The notes under the pieces were generated by a model that ran no database searches, had not been told where the DNA came from, and worked only from the letters and a program-made list of their open reading frames with translations. A stretch of DNA of 64,000 bases from Enterobacteria phage vB_EcoM_IME338, in the sequence record MH051914. One strand, 5' to 3'. This document shows positions 7,043-63,814 of this stretch, piece by piece. The position numbers and the translations under genes were made by a program. The first letter of the stretch is position 1, and every line of letters starts with the position of its first letter.

Positions 7043-7063
7043 AAGACCAATTTAGGTCTTTTT
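7043..7063 (+). terminator. hairpin plus short T-run inside tRNA array (terminator or processing site)
   Basis: aagacc-aattta-ggtctt followed by ttt. Confidence 0.35.
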
Positions 7064-7142
7064 AGAGGGCTTCTAAGGTTATTACAGCTTGTTGTGGAAC
7101 CTTGTTGCTTAGGTTCTTAGAAGTTCTCTAAAAAGATTTAAT

Positions 7143-7219
7143 GCACCTATAGCCCAACTGGTAGAGGCAGCAGACTTAGAATCTGCTCAGTGTGAGTTCG
7201 AATCTCTCTAGGTGTACCA
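7143..7219 (+). tRNA. tRNA-Leu (anticodon TAG), class I-like short variable arm
   Basis: Acceptor gcaccta/taggtgt, anticodon stem gcaga/tctgc loop cttagaa, 5-nt variable loop, TTCGAAT T-loop, A73, CCA. Confidence 0.55.
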
Positions 7220-7226
7220 AATTAAT

Positions 7227-7302
7227 GCAGGTGTAGCAAAATGGTTATGCGGCTGACTCTTAATCAGTAAGACGATGGGTTCAATTCCCTCCACCTGTAC
7301 CA
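7227..7302 (+). tRNA. tRNA-Lys (anticodon CTT)
   Basis: Acceptor gcaggtg/cacctgt, anticodon stem gctga/tcagt loop ctcttaa, TTCAATT T-loop, CCA. Confidence 0.7.
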
Positions 7303-7308
7303 AACATT

Positions 7309-7384
7309 GGGGTCATAGTTTATATGGTTAAAATTCGAGTTTTGCAAACTTGGGAACTGAGTTCAATTCTCAGTGACTCCACCA
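7309..7384 (+). tRNA. tRNA-Ala (anticodon TGC)
   Basis: Acceptor ggggtca/tgactcc, D-stem gttt/aaat, anticodon stem cgagt/acttg loop tttgcaa, T-arm ctgag-TTCAATT-ctcag, CCA. Confidence 0.65.
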
Positions 7385-7390
7385 ATTAGT

Positions 7391-7465
7391 GCATCCATAG
7401 TTTAAACGGGAAAATTACAGTCTTCCAAACTGAGGTTGAGGGTTCGATTCCCTCTGGATGCTCCA
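7391..7465 (+). tRNA. tRNA-Gly (anticodon TCC)
   Basis: Acceptor gcatcca/tggatgc, anticodon loop cttccaa, T-arm gaggg-TTCGATT-ccctc, CCA. Confidence 0.7.
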
Positions 7466-7472
7466 AATTAAT

Positions 7473-7549
7473 GCTGCTTTCGTATAATTGGCTATTACAC
7501 ATCCCTTGTAAGGATGGAAATGCAGGTTCGAGTCCTGTGAGCAGCACCA
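7473..7549 (+). tRNA. tRNA-Thr (anticodon TGT)
   Basis: Acceptor gctgctt/gagcagc, anticodon stem catcc/ggatg loop cttgtaa, T-arm gcagg-TTCGAGT-cctgt, CCA. Confidence 0.7.
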
Positions 7550-7553
7550 ATTC

Positions 7554-7640
7554 AGAGGTCAAGTGAAAGACCGCTGGTGTCAACTGAAGACCGTAACAAA
7601 TTCCACGGAGTTGAGTTAGCGGCACAACTTCAGACCTCTT
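7554..7640 (+). repeat. inter-tRNA hairpin element, variant copy (CAGAGGTC...GACCTCT)
   Basis: 5' agaggtc pairs with 3' gacctct enclosing about 70 nt; same architecture as CAGAAGACC...GGTCTGG elements. Confidence 0.5.
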
Positions 7641-7644
7641 TCAT

Positions 7645-7719
7645 ACTCGCTTAGTTTATATGGTAAAACACCACCCTTACAAGATGAAGAAAAAGGTTCA
7701 AGTCCTTTAGTGAGTACCA
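7645..7719 (+). tRNA. tRNA-Val (anticodon TAC), weak anticodon stem; possible pseudo-tRNA
   Basis: Acceptor actcgct/agtgagt, D-stem gttt/aaac, loop cttacaa but anticodon stem only 3/5 paired, T-arm aaagg-TTCAAGT-ccttt, CCA. Confidence 0.35.
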
Positions 7720-7720
7720 T

Positions 7721-7799
7721 GTTCCAGTATCCCAATTGGCAGAGAGGCCAGACTTAAAATCTGTGTTATGTATCGGTTCGAATCCGATATGGAGTACCA
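7721..7799 (+). tRNA. tRNA-Leu (anticodon TAA), short variable arm
   Basis: Acceptor gttccag/atggagt (6/7 with wobbles), anticodon loop cttaaaa, T-arm atcgg-TTCGAAT-ccgat, A73, CCA. Confidence 0.5.
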
Positions 7800-7804
7800 A
7801 ATTT

Positions 7805-7880
7805 AGCGGTATAGCATAACTGGCAATGCAACAGTCTCTGAAGCTGTCTTATTAAGGTTCAAATCCTTATGCCGCTGCCA
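7805..7880 (+). tRNA. tRNA-Gln (anticodon CTG)
   Basis: Acceptor agcggta/tgccgct, anticodon stem acagt/gctgt loop ctctgaa, T-arm taagg-TTCAAAT-cctta, CCA. Confidence 0.7.
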
Positions 7881-7911
7881 CTTCTAAGGATTCTTACGAG
7901 AGTCCTTAAAT

Positions 7912-7987
7912 GTGGCCTTATCATAAATGGTAATAACCCATGCTGTGAACATGGTCTATACGGGTTCAAATCCCGTAGGTCACCCCA
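7912..7987 (+). tRNA. tRNA-His (anticodon GTG)
   Basis: Acceptor gtggcct/aggtcac, anticodon stem ccatg/catgg loop ctgtgaa, T-arm acggg-TTCAAAT-cccgt, CCA. Confidence 0.65.
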
Positions 7988-7992
7988 ATTTA

Positions 7993-8069
7993 TAGTCCAA
8001 GTAGCTTATATGGTTAAAGCGCGTGTCTGAAAAACATGAGAAGAGGGTTCAAATCCCACTGGACTACCA
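7993..8069 (+). tRNA. tRNA-Phe (anticodon GAA)
   Basis: Acceptor tagtcca/tggacta, anticodon stem cgtgt/acatg loop ctgaaaa, TTCAAAT T-loop; 3' end register uncertain by 1-2 nt. Confidence 0.6.
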
Positions 8070-8085
8070 ATTTCAAAGGTGCTTA

Positions 8086-8820
8086 ATGAAAGAGATGACA
8101 GAACAAGGTAAGGAGATTTTTAATCTCTTAAAAACCGGTAGAGGGTTTTCTAATCCCCTTATTACTGGTGCAGCAGTTCTCGGTGGAACCGTAGCTGCCT
8201 CTACATCACTTATAAGCTCTATTAGCTCTGTAACAGACCCTACAATAAAGGATAAACTTGTTGCTGCTGGACTGACAACAGTTCTGCTTAACAGCTTTAC
8301 AACGAGCCTGACAAGCACTACATCAACCACTAAGACATTGACAGACTACGGTCAAAAGTCTATTGATGAGTTTTCATCACGTATGCAGGTAGCAAAAGGC
8401 TATTCTAATGTTATGGGTGCAGCAGGAGAGCAAGTTGGTTGTACACCATTTAGTGGTATTATGGGTGTTGCTACAGAGTATGGTCAAAAAGCTATTGACA
8501 CAATTAACAGTGCACTAGATGGTGTTAATGATGTATTAAGCGACTTACAAGATGCTATTGATAAAGGTCTTGATACTATTTCTGATTTAGCTAACCAAGC
8601 TGTTAGCAAGATTAATGAAGGTATCTCAAAGATTACAGCTTATGCAGATGAAGTTGTGCAGATGATTGAAGAAGAAGCTGCCCTTATTGCAGAGTACCTT
8701 AAAACGAATATCAATGGGTTCTTAGCAGGTATCTTACCAGACTGGTTTGACGATGCTTGTAAAACTGGTGTAATTGATACTATTGCAACACCAGAAATGA
8801 AGAACGCATTACAGAAATAA
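8086..8820 (+). CDS. hypothetical Ser/Thr-rich protein with one hydrophobic segment, embedded between tRNA genes
   Basis: ORF 8023..8820 trimmed to ATG 8086 because upstream part overlaps tRNA-Phe; hydrophobic stretch PLITGAAVLGGTVAASTSLI. Confidence 0.5.
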   Translation: MKEMTEQGKEIFNLLKTGRGFSNPLITGAAVLGGTVAASTSLISSISSVTDPTIKDKLVAAGLTTVLLNSFTTSLTSTTSTTKTLTDYGQKSIDEFSSRMQVAKGYSNVMGAAGEQVGCTPFSGIMGVATEYGQKAIDTINSALDGVNDVLSDLQDAIDKGLDTISDLANQAVSKINEGISKITAYADEVVQMIEEEAALIAEYLKTNINGFLAGILPDWFDDACKTGVIDTIATPEMKNALQK

Positions 8821-8821
8821 T

Positions 8822-8914
8822 GGAAGATTAACCCTAAAAGGTAAGGGAGCAGTTTGCTAAACTGCCAGTAGCTGAGAAATCGGTGTACCAGTTCAAGTCT
8901 GGTATCTTCCTCCA
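8822..8914 (+). tRNA. tRNA-Ser (anticodon GCT), long variable arm
   Basis: Acceptor ggaagat/atcttcc, anticodon stem gcagt/actgc loop ttgctaa, long variable arm, T-arm accag-TTCAAGT-ctggt, CCA. Confidence 0.7.
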
Positions 8915-8918
8915 ATTT

Positions 8919-8994
8919 GAATCCGTGACAGAAATGGATATGTGCCTGTCTGCAAAACAGGTTTATAAGGGTTCGAGTCCCTTCGGATTCTCCA
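8919..8994 (+). tRNA. tRNA-Cys (anticodon GCA)
   Basis: Acceptor gaatccg/cggattc, anticodon stem cctgt/acagg loop ctgcaaa, T-arm aaggg-TTCGAGT-ccctt, CCA. Confidence 0.7.
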
Positions 8995-39382: not shown

Positions 39383-39939
39383 TCAATGTACCTCATACCA
39401 GCTCTTACCAACCTTTGCTGTACCAGTTACAAGTGTTTCTTTCCTCAAGCCTAAGTTTTTTGAAGCTTGCCCATACATCCAGTCAGCAATTGCTTTCATA
39501 TCATGTGTCATACCCTCTGGGCATTCCCAACTATTTTCGTCGTGATATGCCAGAAGTAACCTTGCTCCGATAGCTGGTTTTCGAGCATTCAGTTTTGTCA
39601 GGCCATCTTCACAGGCTTTTCTTGCTGCTAGGTTGATGGCTTCATTCTGAATCTGTGCTTCCGAACTCATCAGGAGGTAGTTCAGTAGTTTATGTGGAGA
39701 TTTGCACCATATCCATGCTCCAGCGACCCTGATATAACCACCTTTAGCAATTGAAGAGTTCTTCCCAAAAACCTCTTCCAGAGCCTTTTTAGACGCCTTA
39801 AAATCAGCTTCTAAGCTATCAAGTAACTTCTTAATCTTTGGTAAACGCATATAGTAAGTTTGTTTAGTCAATGCACCTTCTTCCGTAGATGATGCCTTGA
39901 TAGTTTTTGCAAACTTCTCATCGCCAGCCCCGAACAATA
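39383..39939 (-). CDS. DNA polymerase (family A, T7 gp5-like), exon 2
   Basis: Encodes motif B remainder FGAGDEKFAKTI and motif C LLAYHDE; ends ...WYEVH as in T7-type polymerases. Confidence 0.85.
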
Positions 39940-40207
39940 CATCTGGTCAATACACTCGCAAGGTGTACCAGTTCTCTTATGAACTTCTCCGCATTTCTAC
40001 GGAGTGTCGGACTATATCACGTAGCAGTGATGCTACCGTTGCACTTGGGGATGGTCATTAGCTTACCACCCTACTCTACTCAGTTCATACGTTAAGTATG
40101 CTTTTCGATAGTCTCTGAACGTTCCTCTTAAGAGGCTTCGCTGCTGATTACCATATCTTTCCAGACTTAGGCTTCCAGCAATTCACAACGTTTTACATGC
40201 GCCACTG
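39940..40207 (-). ncRNA. group I self-splicing intron (ORF-less, 268 nt) within DNA polymerase gene
   Basis: Exon 1 ends GCG U; internal guide GCGCAU pairs AUGCGU of exon; R-like GUUCAGAGACUA and S-like GAUAUAGUCCG elements; intron ends G; splicing restores AKNGIYALLFGAGDEK. Confidence 0.8.
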
Positions 40208-42350
40208 ACGCATAAATGCCATTTTTGGCTTTCTTACGACCTTTTGTAATCTCGTGAAGAAGCTCCTCATCCTGCGTCTCCCTACAACGAACAATATCAT
40301 CTTCCTTGTTTAGACCGAAGTAAATACTATTCAGTGTATGTGCATCAGTACCTGTGTAGACTTCGTAGAGGTCATTCTCAGCATCATAACGAAGATACTT
40401 ATCAGTTTCTGGATTGAGGTACTTATCGAGATGCTTGCAATAGTATCTTCCATCCTCTTGCTTGGTAAATTCTACTGACTCTTTACCTTCAGTTACCGCT
40501 TTGGTGAAGTCTTTATCACCCATAAAGTTACACAGTAAAACAAGCTGTGCAGAGTTCTGGTCAACTGAAACGATATTAGTCCCTTCCTCGCAAATCCACA
40601 CCTCCCTCATAGGTGCTCCATAGACAGCAGCACCAGACGGTACGTTTACAATACCATATTGTGTCATACGTCCAGTTGAAGTACCAAACACCATTGCACC
40701 AGCACTAAGGCGACCATCAGGACGAATCTGGTTCAACCAACCTTTTTCATCATCCTTTGAGTTCTCAATAGTTCTGCGTCGGTGCATCAAGGTATAGTAT
40801 TTCGCAATCTTCTGTCCAAGCTCACCTTCAATCGTATCATAAGATGATTCAGTAAGTTTTGGTGAAGTACGGATTAAGCAAGGCTCAAGCAAATCTGTGT
40901 ACTTCTTCACAGACCAGTTATGCTCAATGTACTGGACACCTTCGTGTTCAACATAACTCAAACCACACCGTTCCACCATCTCATCCCATTTAGGATGCTT
41001 TGTAATCATCTTTTTGTTGTCTTTGAAGCGACAAACCTTAACAGGACGACCATCAGAGTCTTTCTTATAGTTCCAGTCATCTGGAATCCAACCAACTGAT
41101 TTCAAGTAGTCTTTAACAACTGCTACCTGAGTCATACGAGAAACTTCGAACTCAATTGGTGTATATGGTGCATCAATCAAACCTGTGTAGCGACTTGACT
41201 CAAGTTCAAAGTGGTTAACAACATGACTGTTATAGTACTTCACAGTCTTAACTGTTTTTACTGGCTTCCAGTCTTTGCATTTCTTACCAATCTTTGCATT
41301 CAACTCATTGCAAATTGCACGAGCATCCTTCATTGCTACAAAGCCTTCCTTGTACTCTTCACCAGTTACCGAGTTGGTTGGTGTATAGCAATTCCGCTTT
41401 TCAATGTTAAAAATCTTTGTAGTTGGCTTACCAAATGGCTTGATTTCATATGTCTGCATCTCACCGTTACGTACCTGTTGACGATACTTTGTCTTAGGGT
41501 ACTTGGTAATTCTCTTCAGTCCATCTGCATGACCAAATGCTTCAACATACTCATTCCAAGCTTTTGCAAATTCTTCTCCAGTGACTTTACCTTTGGTCTT
41601 AATAGTTGGAGGAAGATGTGGTTCAACTTCTGAAGCAAGCTCGTTAGTCAACTTGTCAAGTTCCTTTACATGGAACTCCATAAGCTCTTTATCAGCTTTC
41701 CAACCATTGATAGCCTGTTGACTCATCCAGAAAGATGTTTCTTTAGCTCGCATGTAGGTTTCATAGGTGTCTACGCCACACTTCTTTAGCTTCAGATATT
41801 CATTATCCAATGCACGTTTAGTTTTGGCGTTAATACGGATATCTTCCACAACACGAGTGAAGATTTCTGCATTCCACACACCCCAATGTTCAATCTCTGG
41901 TTTACGGACACCAACACGAGCACCCCATGCTGCCAAGCCATGAGCACCTTTATAGCCTTTTGGAGTTGGTCTATCCATCCACTGAACACGAGACTGGATA
42001 AGAGAATCCTGAAAGAAATTACTCCACGGCTTACACTTTGGATTATCAAAGTTCCACAAATCGGGTGCAATGTGATTGAAAACCCACCAGTCATAACCGA
42101 GACCGTTATGGATGCAAAGACGTTTTGCCTTTAACGCAAATTCAACACCTTCACGTAAACCACCCTTAATGTACTTGGTATACTTGTGACCGAGGATAGG
42201 TTCATCTGTAAAGACCCATACAGGTGGCTCTTCATCGTCAGATTTATAGTCTGCGAAAGCCATTACGTGCACTTTAGTGAACTCAAGGAGTAAACCATCA
42301 GTTTCTGTATCACCAACTAAATGTAAGTTTTTAAAATCTACGTTTTCCAT
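40208..42350 (-). CDS. DNA polymerase (family A, T7 gp5-like), exon 1
   Basis: 3'-5' exonuclease motif LVGDTETDGL; motif A IVSVDQNSAQL; start of motif B RKKAKNGIYA; start set at MENVDF after GAGGGAG RBS. Confidence 0.85.
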
Positions 42351-42410
42351 TTTTACTCCCTCTAAAATCATTAACCTCATACATTACTGCAAAAAATTAT
42401 AAAAAGCAAG

Positions 42411-48218: not shown

Positions 48219-49259
48219 ATGGAGAAGTACACATTAACAAAACTTCCCGATTCAGTTACACATGTTTTTATTGACTCTGACAGCATTGCCTATAAAGGTG
48301 CTTGTGTAGTTGAGAAAGCAAAATATAAATATGTCAATAAACTCACAGCAGAAGAATCTGAACCATTTGATAATGCAAAAGATGCTGCAAGATGGTTAGC
48401 AGACCAGAGAATCCTTGTGGAAGAACTTGGCCTAGCATTTGATGAAGATGAATGGGAAAGACAGACTTGGAAAGAAGCTAAGAGTGAAAAAGAAGCTATC
48501 ATGGCTACTCAACAGGTGCTTCAGGAATGGCTTAAGGTTGTTGGTAAAGAAAGAACTTGGGTGGGTTATTTAACAGAGAAAGGTGTGCATAAGCATAAAG
48601 ACATTAAAGGTCTTGAGCACCAATATCAAGGTAACCGTAAAGATGCTGTCACACCAACACACTTAGTTGCTTGTCGTAAATATCTTTTATCCAGACCAGA
48701 GTTCAAATTGATTCTTGATGGATTTGAAGCTGACTCTATCGTTATTGCTAAAGCTGAAAAGATGGGAAAAAAGGCTGCCTTAATGAGTATTGATAAAGAC
48801 CTTCGCCAAGCTGAAGGTACTTACTGCATTGATATGACCTATGAAAAATCACCTTTAATTTTCATTGCTGATAACAACGTTGGTGAAATTTGGGATTGTC
48901 CAATAAAATCGACACCAAAAGCTAAGAAGACAGTTGGTGTAGGTTTTAAATTTCTTTGTTACCAAGCTGTGGCTGGTGACAATGCTGATAATTATTTTGG
49001 TTTAAAGGGTGTTGGTAAGGCTACTGTAATGAAAGCCCTTGAAGGTAAAAATACTTATAAAGAGTGTCTTGATGCTATATATGAACTTTATGCTAAGAAA
49101 GAGTCATACACTTATGTATCATGGGATGGTCAAACAATTACCAGAACACCTTTAGAGTTAATGCAGCAACACTTTTTCTTAGCTTATCAGGAAAGAAACA
49201 AGAAAGACGATTTCACTTTTAAGAAATATAATTGGGAGCCTTGTATGAATGAAGATTAA
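48219..49259 (+). CDS. 5'-3' exonuclease / flap endonuclease family protein
   Basis: 346 aa; N-terminal acidic cluster VFIDSDSIAY and LILDGFEADSIVIA resembling GxEADD nuclease motif. Confidence 0.55.
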   Translation: MEKYTLTKLPDSVTHVFIDSDSIAYKGACVVEKAKYKYVNKLTAEESEPFDNAKDAARWLADQRILVEELGLAFDEDEWERQTWKEAKSEKEAIMATQQVLQEWLKVVGKERTWVGYLTEKGVHKHKDIKGLEHQYQGNRKDAVTPTHLVACRKYLLSRPEFKLILDGFEADSIVIAKAEKMGKKAALMSIDKDLRQAEGTYCIDMTYEKSPLIFIADNNVGEIWDCPIKSTPKAKKTVGVGFKFLCYQAVAGDNADNYFGLKGVGKATVMKALEGKNTYKECLDAIYELYAKKESYTYVSWDGQTITRTPLELMQQHFFLAYQERNKKDDFTFKKYNWEPCMNED

Positions 49260-49746
49260 AGGATTTGGTAATTGCCCCAACTATGGTCATTGGGTATCTT
49301 TATGTGGGGAAGTTGACCCCACTAAACATTTTGGCTTTGTCTATTTAGTACACTGTAAGAAGACTGGACAATTTTATATCGGAAGGAAACAGTTTAATAG
49401 CGTGACCAAAAGAAAAGTTGCTGGGAAGACTCGTAAGAAGATAGTCACTAAGGAAAGTGATTGGATGACTTATGAGACTTCTTCTGAGTATATTAAAAAA
49501 GATATTGAGAGCTTTGGAAAAGAATTTTTTGACTTTTACATTATTCAGACCTACTACACAAAAGGTGGCCTAGTCTATGGTGAAGCAAACCTTCAACATA
49601 AATTCGATGTAATGACAAAAAGGATTGACTCGAAGCTCAGACTCTTCTACAATGCCAATATTGCAGCAATTAAGTTTATCACTAAAGAAACTTATGAAGA
49701 TGCTGAAAAAAGAATCCATAAGGTAATGAAAGCGAATTGTGCTTGA
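49249..49746 (+). CDS. GIY-YIG nuclease-domain protein
   Basis: 165 aa; FGFVYLVHCKKTGQFYIGRK matches GIY-(10)-YIG spacing. Confidence 0.5.
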   Translation: MKIKGFGNCPNYGHWVSLCGEVDPTKHFGFVYLVHCKKTGQFYIGRKQFNSVTKRKVAGKTRKKIVTKESDWMTYETSSEYIKKDIESFGKEFFDFYIIQTYYTKGGLVYGEANLQHKFDVMTKRIDSKLRLFYNANIAAIKFITKETYEDAEKRIHKVMKANCA

Positions 49747-49752
49747 TAACTA

Positions 49753-50016
49753 TTGAGAGAGAATAAAATGTTTAACAAAAGTAAAGCTGTGAGTCATGTA
49801 GCAAAGGTTGACAGCAAGATTGAAGAACTTGAGCGCATCCTTGCAAATGCTAGAGAGTCAATAATTAAAGAAGTTGAAGCTGTTGAATCTCAAATGCAGC
49901 ACCTAATGCTTAAACGCCAAGAGCTACGTGAGCATCTTGAATATATTGAAACACGAGAGCTAAAGGTTAACAAATATTTTAAGGAGTACGAATGTTTAAC
50001 TCAAGAGAATCAGTAA
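49753..50016 (+). CDS. hypothetical coiled-coil protein
   Basis: 87 aa ORF. Confidence 0.4.
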   Translation: MRENKMFNKSKAVSHVAKVDSKIEELERILANARESIIKEVEAVESQMQHLMLKRQELREHLEYIETRELKVNKYFKEYECLTQENQ

Positions 50017-50747
50017 AAAACTGGAACCTTCGTTGTGGAAACACTCAAAAGCAACCTTACAGTGATGAGTATTGGGAATCTTTAAAATCTCAATCTCTGT
50101 GTATGCTTGAAGAGGCAAAAGAGCTTGTAAAAGCAATTGAAGAGAAAGACCCCATTGAGACACTGGATGCTCAGGCAGATTTACAATATGTTCTTGACGG
50201 TTTGATTTACCTGTCACAACATGACCATAACGGTGCTATGGAAGCTGTTTGCCATAATAATGACCTGAAGTACACAGATGACTATGAAGAAGCTTTAAAA
50301 CGTCTTGCAGATATTGAGAAGCGCACTGGTCAAGATTGTATTGTCAGAATGTCAGTGGTTGATGGCAAAGAATGGTATGCAATTGTTCGTGCAGCCGATG
50401 GGAAGATTATGAAACAATCTAATCTCCCTAAAGTACAGCTTGGTGAATACATTGTAGAACTTGAAAGCCAAGAACTTTTTGTGGTAGTATCTGAGACATG
50501 CGTTATCTGCAAAGGTCTTGTAGGTAGCTTAAAGGATTTGGGTGTAGATGGTTTTGTAGAAGTTAATCCAATTACCTCTAAGGCAGATAAAGACTTCTGT
50601 AAAGAGAATGGACTATGGATTGCAGATATTGTCTATTATGATGGTGAGCAGTTCCATGTAACCTCATACCCGAAACTGAATTATGATGCTAATAACCTGA
50701 AGTGCTGGTTAAAAGGGGTTGGTTATAATGGATTCACAGAACATTAA
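49992..50747 (+). CDS. hypothetical protein, possible MazG-like NTP pyrophosphohydrolase domain
   Basis: 251 aa; LEEAKELVKAIEEKD...LDAQADLQYVLDGLIYL resembles MazG EExxE...D motif. Confidence 0.3.
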   Translation: MFNSRESVKNWNLRCGNTQKQPYSDEYWESLKSQSLCMLEEAKELVKAIEEKDPIETLDAQADLQYVLDGLIYLSQHDHNGAMEAVCHNNDLKYTDDYEEALKRLADIEKRTGQDCIVRMSVVDGKEWYAIVRAADGKIMKQSNLPKVQLGEYIVELESQELFVVVSETCVICKGLVGSLKDLGVDGFVEVNPITSKADKDFCKENGLWIADIVYYDGEQFHVTSYPKLNYDANNLKCWLKGVGYNGFTEH

Positions 50748-55535: not shown

Positions 55536-56732
55536 ATGAACAAAGTACAGATTATTAAAAAGAATGGCTCACTTGAAGAACCGGATATCAAAAAAGTTTT
55601 AACAGCAGTAACTAAGTCAGCTAACAGGGTTGGTTATAAAGAACTCCCACCAGATGTTATCCAAGCTCTTGAGTCAGCATTTATGAGGATTCTGGTAAAA
55701 TCCACTAAGCAGAATAACTTGCTCATCTCGGTAAATGATATCCACAGTATCGTTGAAGGTGCTTTGGCAGAAGTCAATCACGAGATTTATGAGTCTTACT
55801 CAACATATAGAAATTACCGTAAAGAAGTTGCTCAAAATTGGGATGAGCTTTACCAAAAGACCAAAGACACACTCTTCTTAGGTGACCGTGAAAATGCTAA
55901 CTTTGACAGCAGTTTAATTTCTACAAAAGGTTCAATTATTCGTGGTTACCTGACTAAAGAAATCTTTAAACAGTACCATTTAACACCAGAGGAACTTGAA
56001 GCCATTGAAAAAGGGTTTATCTACATCCATGACTTAAGAGACCTAATTTTTGGTGGTATCAACTGTTGCCTGTTCGACATTGGTAAAGTACTGAAAGGTG
56101 GCTTTGAAATGTCTGGCATCGAATACTGCGAACCTAAATCTGTGCTGTCAGCCTTACAGGTTATTGGTGATGTAGTTCTTTCAGCAACTGCACAGCAATT
56201 TGGTGGTTTTACTTTAGCAGAGATTGATAAGGTACTTGTACCGTATGCTAAGAAATCTCTACGCTATCATGCTGAGAAAGCAGCATCCTACGGTATTCCT
56301 AAAGAACATTACCACAATTATGTCATGGAGCAGCTACAGATTGAACTGACTCAAGGTTTCCAGTCACTTGAAATGAAACTAAATACTGTACCTTGTAGTC
56401 GTGGGGATTTTGCATTCACAACTTTGACATTCGGGTTACTTGACTCAGATATGTCCAATGAAGATAACCGACTGCAATATATAATTGCAAGTACTCTCCT
56501 AGATGTTCGTATGAATGGACAAGGTAAGAGCAAAAAGCCTGTTGTATTCCCTAAACTGGTTTATATTTATGACCAGAAGAGACATAGTGAGAATATCTGT
56601 CAAGGACACCTGTACAGTAAAGCCATTGAGTGTTGCTCTAAAGCAATGTATCCAGATTTCTTAAGTGTATCTGGTCATGGTGCTGTAGCAGAGGCTTTTG
56701 AGCGTTCTGGTAAGGTTATTTCACCGATGGGT
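55536..56732 (+). CDS. nrdD: anaerobic ribonucleotide reductase (class III), exon 1
   Basis: N-terminal ATP-cone; exon ends ...VISPMG, continued in exon 2 as CRAFL matching the conserved PMGCR(S/A)FL of NrdD. Confidence 0.85.
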
Positions 56733-57048
56733 TAACAAGCTCTATAGCTCATCTAAAACGTGCCTAAACAGGGAAACTCTACAGATGTAGACAATCCTGT
56801 GCTAAATGATGTACGATGTAAGAAACTATACAACATAGGAGTCTTACATGCCAAACAACTTCGAATATGAGTTTGAATACATCTAAATGCCGAACGACTA
56901 ACCGTGATGAATGTAGCGGTGTAGGGTCAAGCGACTCGAAATGGTACGCTACTTAGAAATAAGTAGAAGATATAGTCTGGACTTACTGGTGACAGTAAGC
57001 AGCTTGAATAAAGCGGGGTAAGTGTAGCGAACTTATCTGAACAACAAG
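56733..57048 (+). ncRNA. group I self-splicing intron (ORF-less, 316 nt) within nrdD
   Basis: Exon 1 ends GGU; guide GCUCAUC pairs GAUGGGU; P/Q-like CCUAAACAGGGAAACUC...GACAAUCCUGUGCUAAAU, R-like ACGACUAAC, S-like AAGAUAUAGUCUGG; ends G at 57048. Confidence 0.8.
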
Positions 57049-57996
57049 TGTAGAGCATTTTTATCACCATACCATAATGAAGATGGTGAAGAATTTTATG
57101 TAGGTCGCGCTAACATCGGTGCTGTATCTTTGAACTTGCCAATGATTTACCAGTACTCTAAAGAGAATGGTTTAGATTTCTGGAAAGAGCTTGATAAGTA
57201 CCTAGAAATGATTCGTAGCTTCCACAAGAAACGCTACGAAATGATTGCTAATATGCCAGCAAGTTCTAACCCTCTTGCATTTACACAAGGTGGTCTGTAC
57301 AAAGGGACTAAGAAACCTACTGACAAGGTTGGCTGGGATATCGTGAAGTCCTTCACAGCTTCTTTTGGGGTTACTGCTCTTGATGAGCTGTCTGTTCTTG
57401 CTGAAGGTAAACGACTTCATGAAGTTGGAAGTTCTAGTTTTGCATACGATGTTCTGGCATACATCAACATGAAAACTGAAGAGTTTAAAGATGAAGATGG
57501 CTTCTTATATGCCGTATATGGCACTCCAGCAGAATCACTTTGTGGAACTCAGCTAAAACAGTTCAGAGATATGTTTGGAGTTATCAAGGGTGTTTCTGAT
57601 AAAGAATACTTTACAAATAGTTTCCATATGAATGTTGCAGCAGATATCTCACCATTTGAGAAGCAGGACTTAGAAGAACCCTTCTTCCATATCTGTAGAG
57701 GCGGCAGAATCCAGTATGTAAGGGTAGCTAATCCAGAAAACTTATCAGCACTTAAAAGTTGTATTACAAGAGGGATGTTGAAAGGTTTCTATCAGGGACT
57801 TAACTTTGACTTAGCAATCTGTGAACATTGTGGTAACAGACCAAAGGCTGATGTTGAAGAATGTGAGGTTTGCCATTCACATGATATTTCTGTGATTAAC
57901 AGGGTGTGCGGGTACTTGTCATTCACAAAAATTAAAGGTCAGTCTCGAATGAATGACGCTAAGATGGCAGAAATTAAGGATAGGGTTTCTATGTAA
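57049..57996 (+). CDS. nrdD: anaerobic ribonucleotide reductase (class III), exon 2
   Basis: Frame open from 57028; CRAFLSPYHNEDGEEFYVGRANIGAVSLNLP; C-terminal Cys4 cluster and glycyl-radical motif RVCGYL. Confidence 0.85.
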   Translation, partial: CRAFLSPYHNEDGEEFYVGRANIGAVSLNLPMIYQYSKENGLDFWKELDKYLEMIRSFHKKRYEMIANMPASSNPLAFTQGGLYKGTKKPTDKVGWDIVKSFTASFGVTALDELSVLAEGKRLHEVGSSSFAYDVLAYINMKTEEFKDEDGFLYAVYGTPAESLCGTQLKQFRDMFGVIKGVSDKEYFTNSFHMNVAADISPFEKQDLEEPFFHICRGGRIQYVRVANPENLSALKSCITRGMLKGFYQGLNFDLAICEHCGNRPKADVEECEVCHSHDISVINRVCGYLSFTKIKGQSRMNDAKMAEIKDRVSM

Positions 57997-59554: not shown

Positions 59555-59866
59555 ATGAAAAAGATTTATAACACTCGTAAGATTCAGATTGCAGTTCTGT
59601 GTCAGTTTATGGTTGAGCAACATAACGCACATTATTGTGGTACGGGATTTCTAACCTTTGGTGGTGAACACATCCCATTTAAGAAAGCTGTGAAGATGTA
59701 CAATGAATCTCTTGATGGTAGTAAAGAGCTAGAACAGCTTAAACTAACTTACAACAAGAAAGACAAGAAGATTGTATGTCTAAACCATTCTATTAAACCT
59801 ACAAATTACATTATAAGCAACATTGGTGAAGAAGGCTTCCTCAAAGTGTTGAAAATCTCACAGTAA
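59555..59866 (+). CDS. hypothetical protein
   Basis: 103 aa ORF. Confidence 0.4.
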   Translation: MKKIYNTRKIQIAVLCQFMVEQHNAHYCGTGFLTFGGEHIPFKKAVKMYNESLDGSKELEQLKLTYNKKDKKIVCLNHSIKPTNYIISNIGEEGFLKVLKISQ

Positions 59867-59879
59867 GACTATATGATTA

Positions 59880-59904
59880 GGGAACTGTAAAGGTTCCCTT
59901 TTTT
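59880..59904 (+). terminator. rho-independent terminator
   Basis: gggaac-tgtaaag-gttccc hairpin followed by TTTTTT. Confidence 0.75.
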
Positions 59905-59918
59905 ATTTTGGAGATAAT

Positions 59919-60434
59919 ATGTATCTGTCAAACCTGAAACGTTCTGCTGCAATGTCTGTCCTAAGACTGAGCTTTGAAGAACGTCAAGAGTTCATTGACT
60001 CCCACCAATACGACCCTTCTAACTCTAATCACATGATTCTCTGGAATCGTGACAGTACCCGTGAAAGAGCACTATTCCGATATTACCCACACTACACCAT
60101 AGATAATCTGTATGAATGTTTTGTTGTGAAGAACACCATTGCAGTGCTCAATAAGCTTTGTAGATACACAGGTAACCAGTCCTTCACATTAGGCCACCAC
60201 AAGCCTGTTACAAAAGGTGGTGAACATCACTGTGCGAACTGGTTTATCCAAACTAAAGCTGATAATCAGAAGCAAGGAGATAGTCTTTTAAGCACCTCTA
60301 AGATGACCTATGAAGAGCAAGAGAAATATATCAAAAATAATATGCCAGATGTGCTTGACAACAACTATACAGATTTGGCAATATCTCTCCTGTTGAAGTT
60401 CGAGACAGTTTATAGGGCAACTTACAATGTCTAA
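59919..60434 (+). CDS. HNH-motif nuclease-family protein
   Basis: 171 aa; LGHHKPVTKGGEHHCANWFIQTKADNQKQGD resembles HNH core. Confidence 0.45.
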   Translation: MYLSNLKRSAAMSVLRLSFEERQEFIDSHQYDPSNSNHMILWNRDSTRERALFRYYPHYTIDNLYECFVVKNTIAVLNKLCRYTGNQSFTLGHHKPVTKGGEHHCANWFIQTKADNQKQGDSLLSTSKMTYEEQEKYIKNNMPDVLDNNYTDLAISLLLKFETVYRATYNV

Positions 60435-60705
60435 AGAAAAGTGGGAAATTTTACCATTAGCCAGTGAAGGTGGTAATGATTGTGAAATGTATATGATACG
60501 TGGTCATGTTCCAGAACCAATTGCACTTGAGATGATAAACAATTTTACAGGTGTTTCATACAAAGATTTAGGAGAACCGACTGTCAAGCAGCAATGGGTT
60601 AAACCTGTACCAGACAGCACAGGTGACTGTAGTGTACTTTATCACATTGTAGACCCTGCAAAATGCAAATCTGCAATGGCAGTAACAAACGTAACTTTTG
60701 ATTGA
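60427..60705 (+). CDS. hypothetical protein
   Basis: 92 aa ORF. Confidence 0.4.
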   Translation: MSKEKWEILPLASEGGNDCEMYMIRGHVPEPIALEMINNFTGVSYKDLGEPTVKQQWVKPVPDSTGDCSVLYHIVDPAKCKSAMAVTNVTFD

Positions 60706-61598
60706 GAGAGAAAACTATGAAAACTGTTATTGAAGCCGTCGTCACAGCACAAGAGAAATTCTTCCACACAGAAAAATTTAATATCATCCAATTCCCATCT
60801 GGAGAAATTGGTGGAAACTTCTCTGAAGATTTTGTTAAGTTTACTGAGCGTAATGCTGGTAAGATTGATAATGTTATAATTACTGTACAGGGATATGACA
60901 AAGATACACTGTTTGCATTAGCTTTGGCTAAGGATGCCGTTGACAGTCTTGTTCCCCAGAAATCAGCGATGAAAACCGTTGTTTTCGGGTTCTTACCAAA
61001 TGCTCGATATGACCGCCACATGTTCAAAGGTGATGCAGCAGCACTGAAAGTCTTTGCCAACCTAGTTAATGCAATGGGCTTTGATGCAGTATGTGCTCTT
61101 GACCCTCACAGTAATGTTGCAGAAAACTTATTTAAGTGCTTCCAAAGCATGAAGCAAAAAGATGTGGCAGTACACTTTGCAAGTGACCCACGCATTGATT
61201 TCTTGGTAGCCCCAGATGCAGGTGCAGCTAAGAAGACTGAAGAGACTGCTAAAGAGGTGGATAAACCATACATCACAATGTCTAAAGTACGCAACCTTAA
61301 GACTGGTGAAATCACTGGTATGCGAATCCTTGACGATGTTGATTTGACAGATAAAACCGTCATGATTCTAGATGATATTTGTGATGGAGGACGAACCTTT
61401 ATAGAAGCAGCTAAACATCTTCGCGAAGCAGGTGCAAAACGTGTGGAACTCTATGTAACACATGGTATCTTCTCTAAAGATGTTGAAAACCTTCTTGACA
61501 ATGGCATTGACCACATCTACACTACAAACTCTTTAGGCGAAGCTAAAGACCGTGGCTTAACACATTACGGCCAAGTTATTGTAGCAGCCATTGATTGA
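60702..61598 (+). CDS. ribose-phosphate pyrophosphokinase-like protein (PRPP synthetase family; candidate ADPR-PP synthetase of an NAD+ reconstitution pathway)
   Basis: 298 aa; PRPP-binding-like loop VMILDDICDGGRTFIEA; adjacent to and co-oriented with NAMPT-like gene. Confidence 0.75.
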   Translation: MREKTMKTVIEAVVTAQEKFFHTEKFNIIQFPSGEIGGNFSEDFVKFTERNAGKIDNVIITVQGYDKDTLFALALAKDAVDSLVPQKSAMKTVVFGFLPNARYDRHMFKGDAAALKVFANLVNAMGFDAVCALDPHSNVAENLFKCFQSMKQKDVAVHFASDPRIDFLVAPDAGAAKKTEETAKEVDKPYITMSKVRNLKTGEITGMRILDDVDLTDKTVMILDDICDGGRTFIEAAKHLREAGAKRVELYVTHGIFSKDVENLLDNGIDHIYTTNSLGEAKDRGLTHYGQVIVAAID

Positions 61599-61607
61599 AA
61601 CTTTATA

Positions 61608-61627
61608 GGGGCTTAAAAGCCCCATTT
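61608..61627 (+). terminator. hairpin with T-run (possible attenuator) between prs-like and NAMPT-like genes
   Basis: ggggct-taaa-agcccc followed by ATTTT. Confidence 0.45.
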
Positions 61628-61643
61628 TGAGAGAGATTAAAAG

Positions 61644-63425
61644 ATGACTAAATCACTTTATGCAGTACCAGCAGGTCTTAATGCAGATGCTTACAAGGCA
61701 TCACATATATATCAGTATCCAGATGCTACGCAATATCTTATGTTGAACCTGACACCACGTAGTGACAAATGGTTTAACAGCCCTTTGGCAATTGACGGTG
61801 TAGTGGCTTTTGGTATTCAACGTTTCGTTAAAGATTACTTGATAGACCACTGGAACGCCACTTTCTTTGAACGTGATAAAAAAGAAGCAATTGACGAAAT
61901 CTTAGAAGTCATGAATGGTGTTCTGGGTAAAGATGCTATCGGTCGAGAGCATTGGGAAGCACTTCACGACTTAGGTTATCTACCAGTTGAAGTATACGCT
62001 GTAGAAGAAGGCACAGTTGTTCCAATGCGTGTCCCGATGATTGTCTTTCAGAACACTGTTTCAGGTTTCCATTGGGTAGCAGGTTATCTGGAAGATGCTT
62101 TCTCTGCTGAGATTTGGAAGGCTTGTACCATTGCAACTATTGCATTGCACTACAAACGTATCTGTAAGAAGTGGGCTGACCTTACTTGTGACAATGACTT
62201 GCATTTGCCTTATCAGTGCCATGACTTTGCTATGCGTGGTATGTCCGGCTTTACTGATGACGCATTTAACGCTGTAGGACACTTAACCAGCTTTAAAGGA
62301 ACTGATAGCTTCCCTGCTGTGTATACAGCTAAACGCATCTATGGGCAGTCCTACCCAATCTCTGATATTGGTAGTTCTGTACCAGCCACTGAACACTCTG
62401 TAATGTGTGCAAACATTGCTTGGGAAGGTGGTAATGAGTTGATTGAAGAAGAAAGACGTTTTAAAGGTGAGTTACAAACCTTCCGTCGTTTCTTAACAGA
62501 AACTTACCCAACTGGTATTGCAAGTGTTGTCTCAGACACTTATAACTTTTGGAGAACTGTGTCAGAAATCTTACCAGCACTTCGTAAAGAGATTATGGAA
62601 CGTGATGGTAAACTGGTAATTCGTCCTGACTCTGGTGACCCTGTACATATTGTCACAGGCTATAAAGCAATCCACTTAGAGTGCGCTAAAAAGGCTTATT
62701 ACGAACACCTAAGCAAGCTGGAAGCCAGCGACACAATGCTGAATGCTGTTCTGAACATGAAGCTTGAAAACATCAACTATGGTATTGCTGGATGGCTACT
62801 GTCAGAAGGCTACGAAATGGTTGTTGACAGAGAAGACTTTGAAGTTGCTGATACAGTGCTGTTGAAAAATGCTTATATGGTTGGCTCTGCAAACGTTGTA
62901 ACACGTCCTGTAGCAGAGATTGATGGGGCTATTAAGACCTTGTATAACATCTTTGGAGGAACTATCAACTCTAAAGGTTTTAAGGTACTGGATGAGCACA
63001 TTGGACTTATCTATGGTGACTCTATCACGTTGGAACGTGCAAACGAAATCCTGAAGCGTCTGTATGAAATGGGTTTTGCAAGCTCTAACGTAGTGTTTGG
63101 CGTAGGCTCTTACACTTACCAGTACATGACTCGTGACACCTTTGCATTTGCTGTCAAAGCAACTCTTGCAAGCATTGGTGGTAAAGAGATTATGCTTGCA
63201 AAAGACCCTAAAACAGATAGTGGTGTTAAGAAATCTGCCTTTGGTGGTGTAGCACCTATGTGGGATGGTGATAAGCTGAAAGCTGTAGATGGCTATGGAT
63301 TCCAGAGTTTTGCAGATGTACTTGACCACCCAGCTTGTGCCTTACGTTTAGTCTTTAGTGACTCTGAGCAGTTCGGCTACAAAACTCTTGGTGATATTCG
63401 AAATAATATTGACAAGCAGCTTTAA
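61644..63425 (+). CDS. nadV: nicotinamide phosphoribosyltransferase-like protein (NAMPT/NadV family)
   Basis: 593 aa; size and motifs (e.g. GSSVPATEHS, RPDSGDP) consistent with type II phosphoribosyltransferase NAMPT family. Confidence 0.8.
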   Translation: MTKSLYAVPAGLNADAYKASHIYQYPDATQYLMLNLTPRSDKWFNSPLAIDGVVAFGIQRFVKDYLIDHWNATFFERDKKEAIDEILEVMNGVLGKDAIGREHWEALHDLGYLPVEVYAVEEGTVVPMRVPMIVFQNTVSGFHWVAGYLEDAFSAEIWKACTIATIALHYKRICKKWADLTCDNDLHLPYQCHDFAMRGMSGFTDDAFNAVGHLTSFKGTDSFPAVYTAKRIYGQSYPISDIGSSVPATEHSVMCANIAWEGGNELIEEERRFKGELQTFRRFLTETYPTGIASVVSDTYNFWRTVSEILPALRKEIMERDGKLVIRPDSGDPVHIVTGYKAIHLECAKKAYYEHLSKLEASDTMLNAVLNMKLENINYGIAGWLLSEGYEMVVDREDFEVADTVLLKNAYMVGSANVVTRPVAEIDGAIKTLYNIFGGTINSKGFKVLDEHIGLIYGDSITLERANEILKRLYEMGFASSNVVFGVGSYTYQYMTRDTFAFAVKATLASIGGKEIMLAKDPKTDSGVKKSAFGGVAPMWDGDKLKAVDGYGFQSFADVLDHPACALRLVFSDSEQFGYKTLGDIRNNIDKQL

Positions 63426-63439
63426 AAGTATATGATAAG

Positions 63440-63462
63440 AGGCTCCTATAGGAGCCTTTTTA
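63440..63462 (+). terminator. rho-independent terminator
   Basis: aggctcc-tata-ggagcct hairpin followed by TTTTT. Confidence 0.75.
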
Positions 63463-63478: not shown

Positions 63479-63814
63479 ATGAAAATCAAAGAGATGAATA
63501 TTAACGTTGTCTTGGAAGAACGCTGGGAAAACATTAAGAAACCTGAAGATGGTAAAAAGTTTCTTAACAAAATTTTAGTAGCAGCTAAAGAAGAACTGAA
63601 TGGCAAGATTGCAGCAGCAATCACAATAAAGGTTTGTGTAAAAGGTCTTCCAGACAACCACCAATTTGCACTTGACGAGTTTAAAGAAAGCTTCTACAAT
63701 CCAAACAAACAGATGCTTGAAAGTAACTTTGCAGTATCTACAAGTATCGTCCATGACAGAAGCTTTATCCTTTACAAAAATATGAGAGGTGAGTCATGCA
63801 AGCATATTGGATAG
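63479..63814 (+). CDS. hypothetical protein
   Basis: 111 aa ORF. Confidence 0.45.
   Translation: MKIKEMNINVVLEERWENIKKPEDGKKFLNKILVAAKEELNGKIAAAITIKVCVKGLPDNHQFALDEFKESFYNPNKQMLESNFAVSTSIVHDRSFILYKNMRGESCKHIG

Follow-up and report, generated by a model that had tools for sequence, protein, structure and literature searches.

Enterobacteria phage vB_EcoM_IME338 (sequence record MH051914) carries, in the stretch of 64,000 nucleotides (nt) that was analysed here and is called the window, two adjacent genes on the + strand, of which the first resembles ribose-phosphate pyrophosphokinase (Prs) and the second nicotinamide phosphoribosyltransferase (NAMPT). With high confidence we read this pair as a basic two-gene NARP1 counter-defence operon of a Felixounavirus. 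It is composed of adps, predicted to encode an enzyme that makes the pyrophosphate derivative (ADPR-PP) of ADP-ribose (ADPR), and namat, predicted to encode a nicotinamide ADPR-transferase, which together would rebuild nicotinamide adenine dinucleotide (NAD+) after its cleavage by a host defence system. A first-pass annotation, made from the letters of the sequence and a list of its open reading frames (ORFs), had likened this architecture to NARP1. The resemblance is borne out by 98% amino acid identity to the products of genes 79 and 80 of Escherichia phage JohannRWettstein (Bas63) and by the published determinants of Adps and Namat, which the two proteins carry. The positions of all features are collected in Table 1.

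The adps-namat pair and its closest relatives

The order first proposed, a Prs-like ORF followed by a NAMPT-like ORF, was confirmed on the + strand, with family matches far beyond chance for both products. That of adps matches the Pfam families Pribosyltran and Pribosyl_synth and the PHROG group 'ribose-phosphate pyrophosphokinase' (5.7e-99), and that of namat matches Pfam NAPRTase (5.7e-35) and NAMPT_N and the PHROG group 'nicotinamide phosphoribosyl transferase' (1.4e-201). The extent initially given to the first gene, 60702..61598, is right at its end and probably wrong at its start: position 60702 is the TTG at which the ORF opens mechanically, and the ATG at 60717 is the likelier start codon, a correction of 15 nt. 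This ATG is preceded by TTGAGAGAGA, the same motif stands before the ATG of namat, and the equivalent ATG is the annotated start of the adps homologue in Bas63. The two genes are co-oriented, with 45 nt between the stop of adps and the start of namat. According to the published criterion, a Namat homologue lies at most 10 genes from adps, and 97% of the Adps-clade genes have one nearby; here it is the very next gene.

A 4.5-kb query around the pair matched 257 phage records at up to 93% nt identity, almost all of them Felix O1-like phages of E. coli, Salmonella, Shigella and Citrobacter, and the first 25 kb of the window are ~96% identical at the nt level to the nearest isolates. Judged by these matches, the window comes from an ordinary member of the genus Felixounavirus. 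Bas63 belongs to the same genus, and it is in its genes 79/80 that NARP1, consisting of Adps and Namat, was discovered and genetically validated (bioRxiv 10.1101/2024.02.11.579819). These genes (bas63_0079 and bas63_0080) stand in the same order as those of the window and share ~95% nt identity with them, and both phages also have in common the two ORFs upstream of adps, a hairpin between adps and namat and hairpins flanking the block. Bas63 differs from the window by an extra small ORF downstream (bas63_0081). None of the 7 substitutions in Adps (286 of 293 residues identical, 97.6%) and of the 13 in Namat (580 of 593 identical) falls at a mapped functional residue. At the codon level the differences are mostly synonymous (33 synonymous and 7 non-synonymous in adps, 76 and 13 in namat), which is consistent with purifying selection.

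The first-pass annotation had suggested a profile comparison of the first product against genuine Prs and Adps, and in this comparison the protein resembles the validated Adps of Bacillus phage SPbetaL1 (SpβL1). BLASTP gave 96.7 bits to SpβL1 Adps compared to 65.9 bits to E. coli Prs, with which the window protein shares 28% identity. Among the NCBIfam models it passes the broad subfamily model TIGR01251 (136 bits, cut-off 113) and fails the cut-offs of all Prs equivalog models, its best score being 113 bits against a cut-off of 296. SpβL1 Adps, with 106 bits, likewise stays at the level of the broad TIGR01251 and fails every equivalog-level Prs model, while E. coli Prs passes the Prs models easily with 533 and 423 bits. 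Moreover, K190 of the window protein aligns with K162 of SpβL1 Adps, the catalytic lysine whose replacement in the K162A mutant leaves the enzyme inactive (bioRxiv 10.1101/2024.02.11.579819), and this lysine is invariant in 5 Adps sequences. On these comparisons, the first enzyme is placed, within the Prs family, in the Adps clade of phages, which was defined with Bas63 Adps as the query (bioRxiv 10.1101/2024.02.11.579819), and not with cellular Prs.

For the second gene, the best matches in the PDB are the crystal structures of SpβL1 Namat (9w5w and 9w5x, both with E 3e-129). Over its aligned region, 9w5x agrees to 100% with the SPbetaL1 Namat gene. The residues that contact nicotinamide and NAD+ were taken from the publication (PMC12774641) and mapped onto the window protein, which retains the published contacts (Table 1). 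The Nampt-like catalytic core of SpβL1 Namat, formed by F189, R192, D215, H245, R306 and D308, corresponds to F195, R198, D221, H251, R327 and D329 in the window. The Namat-specific consensus GS-X-Φ-X-Φ-X-Φ-TRD reads GSYTYQYMTRD at amino acids (aa) 488-498, and the adenine-binding motif that is missing from NAMPTs is present. R, K or Y occupies the third position of the selectivity-clamp loop and, with K or Y there, it is the fourth residue that stacks on the adenine (PMC12774641). The loop of the window protein reads TPRSDKW, in which K42 aligns with R40 of SpβL1 and is followed by W43, the arrangement of the Bas63 type. Two insertions, of ~15 aa (aa 259-274) and ~77 aa (aa 343-427), set the window Namat apart from the SpβL1 enzyme that was crystallised. 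Both are also found in Bas63 Namat, and their lengths differ among the Namats of phages of Gram-negative bacteria. Searched alone, the segment aa 340-429 gave no meaningful match in Pfam or the PDB, and the insertions are not discussed in PMC12774641, in whose text the word 'insertion' does not occur.

From ADP-ribose back to NAD+: the proposed route and its rivals

In the route proposed for the pair, a host NADase defence (SIR2-, TIR- or SEFIR-based) would split NAD+ into ADPR and nicotinamide. Adps would then pyrophosphorylate the terminal ribose of ADPR with ATP, yielding ADPR-PP, and Namat would exchange the pyrophosphate for nicotinamide, restoring NAD+ directly, so that neither nicotinamide mononucleotide (NMN) as an intermediate nor an NMN adenylyltransferase (Nmnat) would be required. 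The window itself contributes homology, gene order, the conservation of catalytic and selectivity residues and the finding that no Nmnat, Macro or RyR partner was detected, and its enzymes are expected to act like their counterparts in Bas63 and SpβL1. Deletion of genes 79-80 from Bas63 results in ~20-fold fewer plaques on a host with SIR2-HerA and in a deeper NAD+ depletion (bioRxiv 10.1101/2024.02.11.579819). In an independent knockout screen of Bas63, loss of gene 79 or gene 80 alone lowered the efficiency of plating on Sir2-HerA by a factor of 10^4 to 10^6, complementation restored it, and weaker effects were seen versus retron Ec86 and hhe (bioRxiv 10.1101/2024.10.10.617714). Given 98% identity to these proteins, the window pair is predicted to counter NAD+-depleting defences in the same way.

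The names that Pfam, PHROG and NCBIfam attach to the two products, and that most GenBank records of relatives still bear, are those of Prs and of NAMPT or NAPRTase, and they would suit classical nicotinamide salvage, in which a true phosphoribosyl pyrophosphate (PRPP) synthetase and a true NAMPT make NMN and the host enzymes NadR/PncC complete NAD+. SpβL1 Namat does make NMN from PRPP in vitro. For Bas63, however, this reading has already been largely refuted: the phage keeps its counter-defence against SIR2-HerA in a ΔpncC ΔnadR host (bioRxiv 10.1101/2024.02.11.579819), which excludes the NMN route suggested by the domain names, and ADPR-PP (m/z 720.010) was seen only when wild-type Bas63 met an active defence system, its appearance in infected cells requiring genes 79-80 (bioRxiv 10.1101/2024.02.11.579819). 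In vitro, SpβL1 Adps converts ADPR and ATP to ADPR-PP, whereas the Prs control assay with this enzyme yielded no product. SpβL1 Namat has a preference for ADPR-PP over PRPP, and NAD+ was all that it formed when both donors were offered (bioRxiv 10.1101/2024.02.11.579819). As the window Adps moreover falls below all Prs equivalog cut-offs and the window Namat carries an adenine-binding motif that NAMPTs do not have, we consider classical salvage extremely improbable here. The Nampt fold of the second gene would also fit a pathway of the NARP2 type, as in Vibrio phage KVP40, where the NMN that Nampt produces from PRPP is turned into NAD+ by an Nmnat of the phage. Here, however, namat directly follows an Adps-clade gene and has the adenine-clamp motif, and, as the first-pass annotation had remarked, no NMN adenylyltransferase is found in the window: among the 26 window ORFs scanned, no Nmnat, Macro or RyR family of Pfam was detected, and nothing of the kind is annotated in the complete genome of Bas63. 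In a published survey no phage had both NARP pathways, and 94% of the NARP2-type Nampt genes co-occurred with Nmnat. The failure to find these three families argues against NARP2, to which we give next to no chance, and also against the two forms of NARP1 that carry a further enzyme, NARP1-AP and the RyDEP-coupled form; the four flanking ORFs gave no Macro-domain match in Pfam, PHROG or NCBIfam, and the flanking ORFs gave no match to the RyR domain (PF02026) in Pfam.

A different extension would come from the region upstream of adps, where the first-pass annotation had counted an HNH-motif gene and two small ORFs between 59919 and 60705 and had supposed that they may belong to the same unit. 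Only two ORFs lie there, of 171 and 92 aa, and of the supposed unity a plausible co-transcription is what is left, as nothing links the two ORFs to NAD+ reconstitution. If they were NARP1 accessories, comparable to the Adpp phosphatase or the RyDEP glycosidase, the locus would form a four-gene NAD+ unit. Such a unit would agree with the tight packing of the four ORFs (8-nt overlap, 11-nt gap) between terminator-like hairpins at both ends, with a gene order that is kept across the Ounavirinae, and with the accessory genes documented within NARP1 operons of other phages. Conversely, two genes were enough in the knock-in and co-expression experiments with SpβL1 NARP1, SpβL1 and a Justusliebigvirus have genes of the opposite orientation upstream of their NARP1, and Pfam detected no Macro or RyR domain in either ORF. 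In the Stephanstirmvirinae, which also carry NARP1 elsewhere, homologues of the 171-aa ORF have a helicase next to them and are more than 5 kb away from any NARP1 gene, and this ORF persists in both NARP1-deleted variants described below. Its Bas63 homologue, gp77, is reported to counter retron Ec67 ~10-fold, not an NADase, and was called a GIY-YIG protein (PhageMaP, bioRxiv 10.1101/2024.10.10.617714). In Kolesnikvirus, finally, an unrelated ORF replaces the 92-aa ORF. A four-gene NAD+ unit is thus very unlikely, and the surroundings of the pair resemble a row of counter-defence genes that are separate from each other, not one enlarged NAD+ unit. It is likewise unlikely that the NARP1 of the Ounavirinae holds undescribed lineage-specific additions, namely the 92-aa ORF, the Namat insertions or both. 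From position and conservation, the 92-aa ORF could serve NARP1 as an accessory or a regulator, or it could be a separate small anti-defence protein, and the insertions could provide an added function, for example the docking of Adps for the hand-over of labile ADPR-PP.

Several points weigh against the assignment of the pair to two-gene NARP1. The activity of the two proteins encoded in the window is deduced from their sequence, and the in vitro biochemistry and the structures were obtained with the SpβL1 enzymes, which are only ~30-34% (Adps) and ~47% (Namat) identical to them. Bas63 Adps purified poorly (bioRxiv 10.1101/2024.02.11.579819). SpβL1 Namat retains a PRPP-to-NMN side activity in vitro (PMC12774641), and some classical salvage flux is possible. 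The two insertions of the window Namat are missing from the crystallised enzyme. Finally, the window covers ~64 kb of a genome of ~86 kb, and for the remainder the absence of Nmnat is taken from the Bas63 annotation alone.

Flanking genes, transcription signals and natural loss

The 171-aa ORF has a weak PHROG match to HNH proteins (E 1e-4) and no family match in Pfam or NCBIfam. It contains the conserved stretch GHH...GG.HH..NW.IQ...DNQ, and its AlphaFold2 model (pLDDT 66.7, pTM 0.70) places β-strands at residues 89-93 and 108-112. Foldseek searches of this model against the PDB gave nothing below E 0.29; an HNH nickase (4h9d, E ~3) and the HNH domains of Cas9 came up with E values of 3-9 and no better. 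This nuclease-like protein may belong to the HNH or the GIY-YIG family. A search of its sequence against PDB sequences returned only repeats of staphylococcal protein A, in which each stretch is individually non-significant, and these matches were rejected as spurious. Homologues of the 92-aa ORF are confined to the Ounavirinae. It has no family or structural match, its AlphaFold2 model, built from an alignment of 6 sequences, being unusable (pLDDT 51.7). This ORF diverges faster than the genes around it, the comparison with Bas63 showing 12 synonymous and 9 non-synonymous codon differences. The PhageMaP supplements have no entry for gene 78 or for bas63_0077/0078.

Table 1. Positions of the features discussed, as nucleotides of the window or as residues of the encoded protein
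Feature	Position	Strand	Basis or remark
adps (Prs-like; predicted ADPR-PP synthetase, 293 aa)	60717..61598	+	mechanical ORF start is the TTG at 60702 (298 aa)
namat (NAMPT fold; predicted nicotinamide ADPR-transferase, 593 aa)	61644..63425	+	homology, contact residues
Namat N-terminal contacts	D15, Y17		present
Namat core	F195, A196 (for S190), R198, D221, A248		mapped
Namat catalytic histidine	H251		present
Namat core, further residues	R327, D329		present
Namat loop	G458-D459-S460		mapped
Namat selectivity-clamp helix	G488-S489-Y490, Y494, T496-R497-D498		present
Namat insertions	62418-62465 (aa 259-274), 62670-62924 (aa 343-427)	+	alignment to SpβL1 Namat
171-aa nuclease-like ORF (phrog_3500), Bas63 gp77 homologue, outside NARP1	59919..60434	+	96% identical to bas63_0077
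92-aa ORF (phrog_4726), neighbour	60427..60705	+	overlaps the 171-aa ORF by 8 nt; ends 11 nt before the adps ATG
Promoter-like site before the 5' hairpin	59849-59877	+	scan
Terminator-like hairpin and T-run, probable 5' boundary of the four-gene block	59879..59899	+	z = -1.91, weak; conserved in Bas63
Short GC hairpin GGGGCU-UAAA-AGCCCC in the adps-namat spacer	61608..61623	+	folding
Terminator-like hairpin and T-run right after namat, probable 3' end	63437..63460	+	z = -2.93; stem identical in Bas63
Direct repeat TTGCACTTGA (10 bp), left copy, in the 92-aa ORF	60521..60530	+	deletion junction
Direct repeat TTGCACTTGA, right copy, in the 111-aa ORF (63479..63814)	63666..63675	+	deletion junction
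471-aa DUF2828/DUF7788 protein	3411-4826	+	directly 5' of the tRNA array
tRNA array, 22 genes	4992-8994	+	typical of Felixounavirus
Group I intron in the DNA polymerase gene	39987-40270	-	above Rfam gathering score; ORFs 40167..42380 and 39383..39937
SegE-type GIY-YIG endonuclease	49249-49746	+	replication/nucleotide-metabolism region
MazG-like PRA-PH domain protein	49992-50747	+	replication/nucleotide-metabolism region
Group I intron in nrdD	56675-56999	+	above Rfam gathering score; ORFs 55536..56735 and 57130..57996

The counts of promoter and terminator sites found by scanning do not exceed the expectation from shuffled sequence (5 terminator-like sites in the region compared to 4.6 expected), so that the operon boundaries rest on position, folding z-scores and conservation. 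Co-transcription of the four-gene block is plausible because the hairpins that bracket it are conserved and because the annotation of Erwinia phage phiEa21-4 puts a terminator at this very place, behind nadV. Within the block, the 51-nt stretch 61596-61646 that includes the spacer hairpin folds with -12.6 kcal/mol (z = -3.07). The stem of this hairpin is kept in Bas63 with a changed loop, and a different hairpin occupies the same spacer in a Justusliebigvirus; a partial terminator and an RNA stability element are both possibilities for its role. As a further observation, both edges of the block (59849-59899 and 63409-63460) have the same layout, a promoter-like -10 element TATGAT with a GC hairpin and a T-run immediately behind it, which is kept in Bas63.

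The module is occasionally lost in nature. A metagenomic Felixounavirus contig of 83.7 kb has the usual gene order without adps and namat and encodes, at positions 4001-4243 of the extracted locus, an 80-aa fusion protein in which residues 1-34 of the 92-aa ORF are joined to the C-terminus of the 111-aa ORF that lies downstream of namat in the window. The corresponding deletion spans 3145 bp, removes NARP1 and has its junction exactly at the direct repeat TTGCACTTGA, which occurs exactly twice on the + strand of the window. Salmonella phage FM4b has a different, internal deletion that leaves stubs of 33 aa of Adps and 55 aa of Namat (positions 1092-1339 of its locus), and phage FG1m shows the same two-piece match pattern as FM4b. 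These two are the only ones among 223 matching isolate records in which NARP1 is lost, from which it follows that the module is nearly universal in the genus and nevertheless dispensable.

Elsewhere in the window, a 471-aa protein next to the tRNA genes corresponds by position and length to gp130 of Bas63, described as a Ro60-like protein that counters the hhe defence (PhageMaP, bioRxiv 10.1101/2024.10.10.617714). Two group I introns split the genes for DNA polymerase and nrdD, and neither holds an ORF of 130 aa or more; in Bas63, the polymerase is encoded by a single coding sequence and the nrdD join encloses a homing endonuclease. The remaining entries of Table 1, a MazG-like protein and a SegE-type endonuclease, lie in the region of replication and nucleotide metabolism. 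The genes rIIA and rIIB follow downstream of the block, just past the end of the window; both have been described as counters to qatABCD (bioRxiv 10.1101/2024.10.10.617714).

Annotation, phage therapy and comparison with known systems

The practical value of the assignment is in annotation, where Adps and Namat are the correct names for the two genes. As of June 2026, NCBIfam, Pfam and PHROG have no dedicated model for Adps or Namat; in NCBIfam the validated proteins match, like those of the window, only generic Prs and NAPRTase models, and the model NF006629 would label Namat 'nicotinate phosphoribosyltransferase'; as long as NCBIfam has no such model, automated annotation will keep mislabelling both genes. 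For therapy with Felix O1-like phages, the pair predicts resistance of the phage to NAD+-depleting defences of the SIR2, TIR and SEFIR types. Conversely, because the Adpp phosphatase is lacking, the phage is predicted to be sensitive to aRES. Rare natural variants without the NARP1 module exist among these phages.

Among the known systems, the NARP1 of Bacillus phage SPbetaL1 (9w5w, 9w5x) has the same order of Adps followed by Namat, the same catalytic lysine, and in Namat the same catalytic core and the motif GSxΦxΦxΦTRD. It differs from the window by R40 in the clamp loop where the window has K42-W43, by genes that abut where the window has a 45-nt spacer with a hairpin, and by a Namat without the insertions of ~15 aa and ~77 aa. 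In NARP1-AP, as found in Vibrio phage Gary in the order Adps-Adpp-Namat, the same two core enzymes are joined by a gene for a Macro-domain ADPR-1''-phosphate phosphatase (Adpp) within the operon, and in the RyDEP-associated form of Mycobacterium phage DyoEdafos by a gene for an RyR-domain (PF02026) glycosidase within the locus. Neither is found in or next to the operon of the window, and for its phage the prediction is that neither ADPR-1''-phosphate nor cyclic ADPR signals can serve as input. NARP2 of KVP40 likewise employs an enzyme of the NAMPT fold to restore NAD+ in infection, as proposed here, but it needs PRPP and a phage Nmnat and runs with or without active defence. The cellular Prs and NAMPT, such as Prs of E. 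coli, have the folds, the catalytic chemistry and the Pribosyltran loop in common with the window enzymes, yet their substrates are ribose-5-phosphate and PRPP, whereas those of the NARP1 enzymes are, according to the literature, ADPR and ADPR-PP. The closest of all these systems is that of Bas63: the NARP1 pair of the window is an already known system, described in 2024 in a phage of the same genus with 98% identical proteins.

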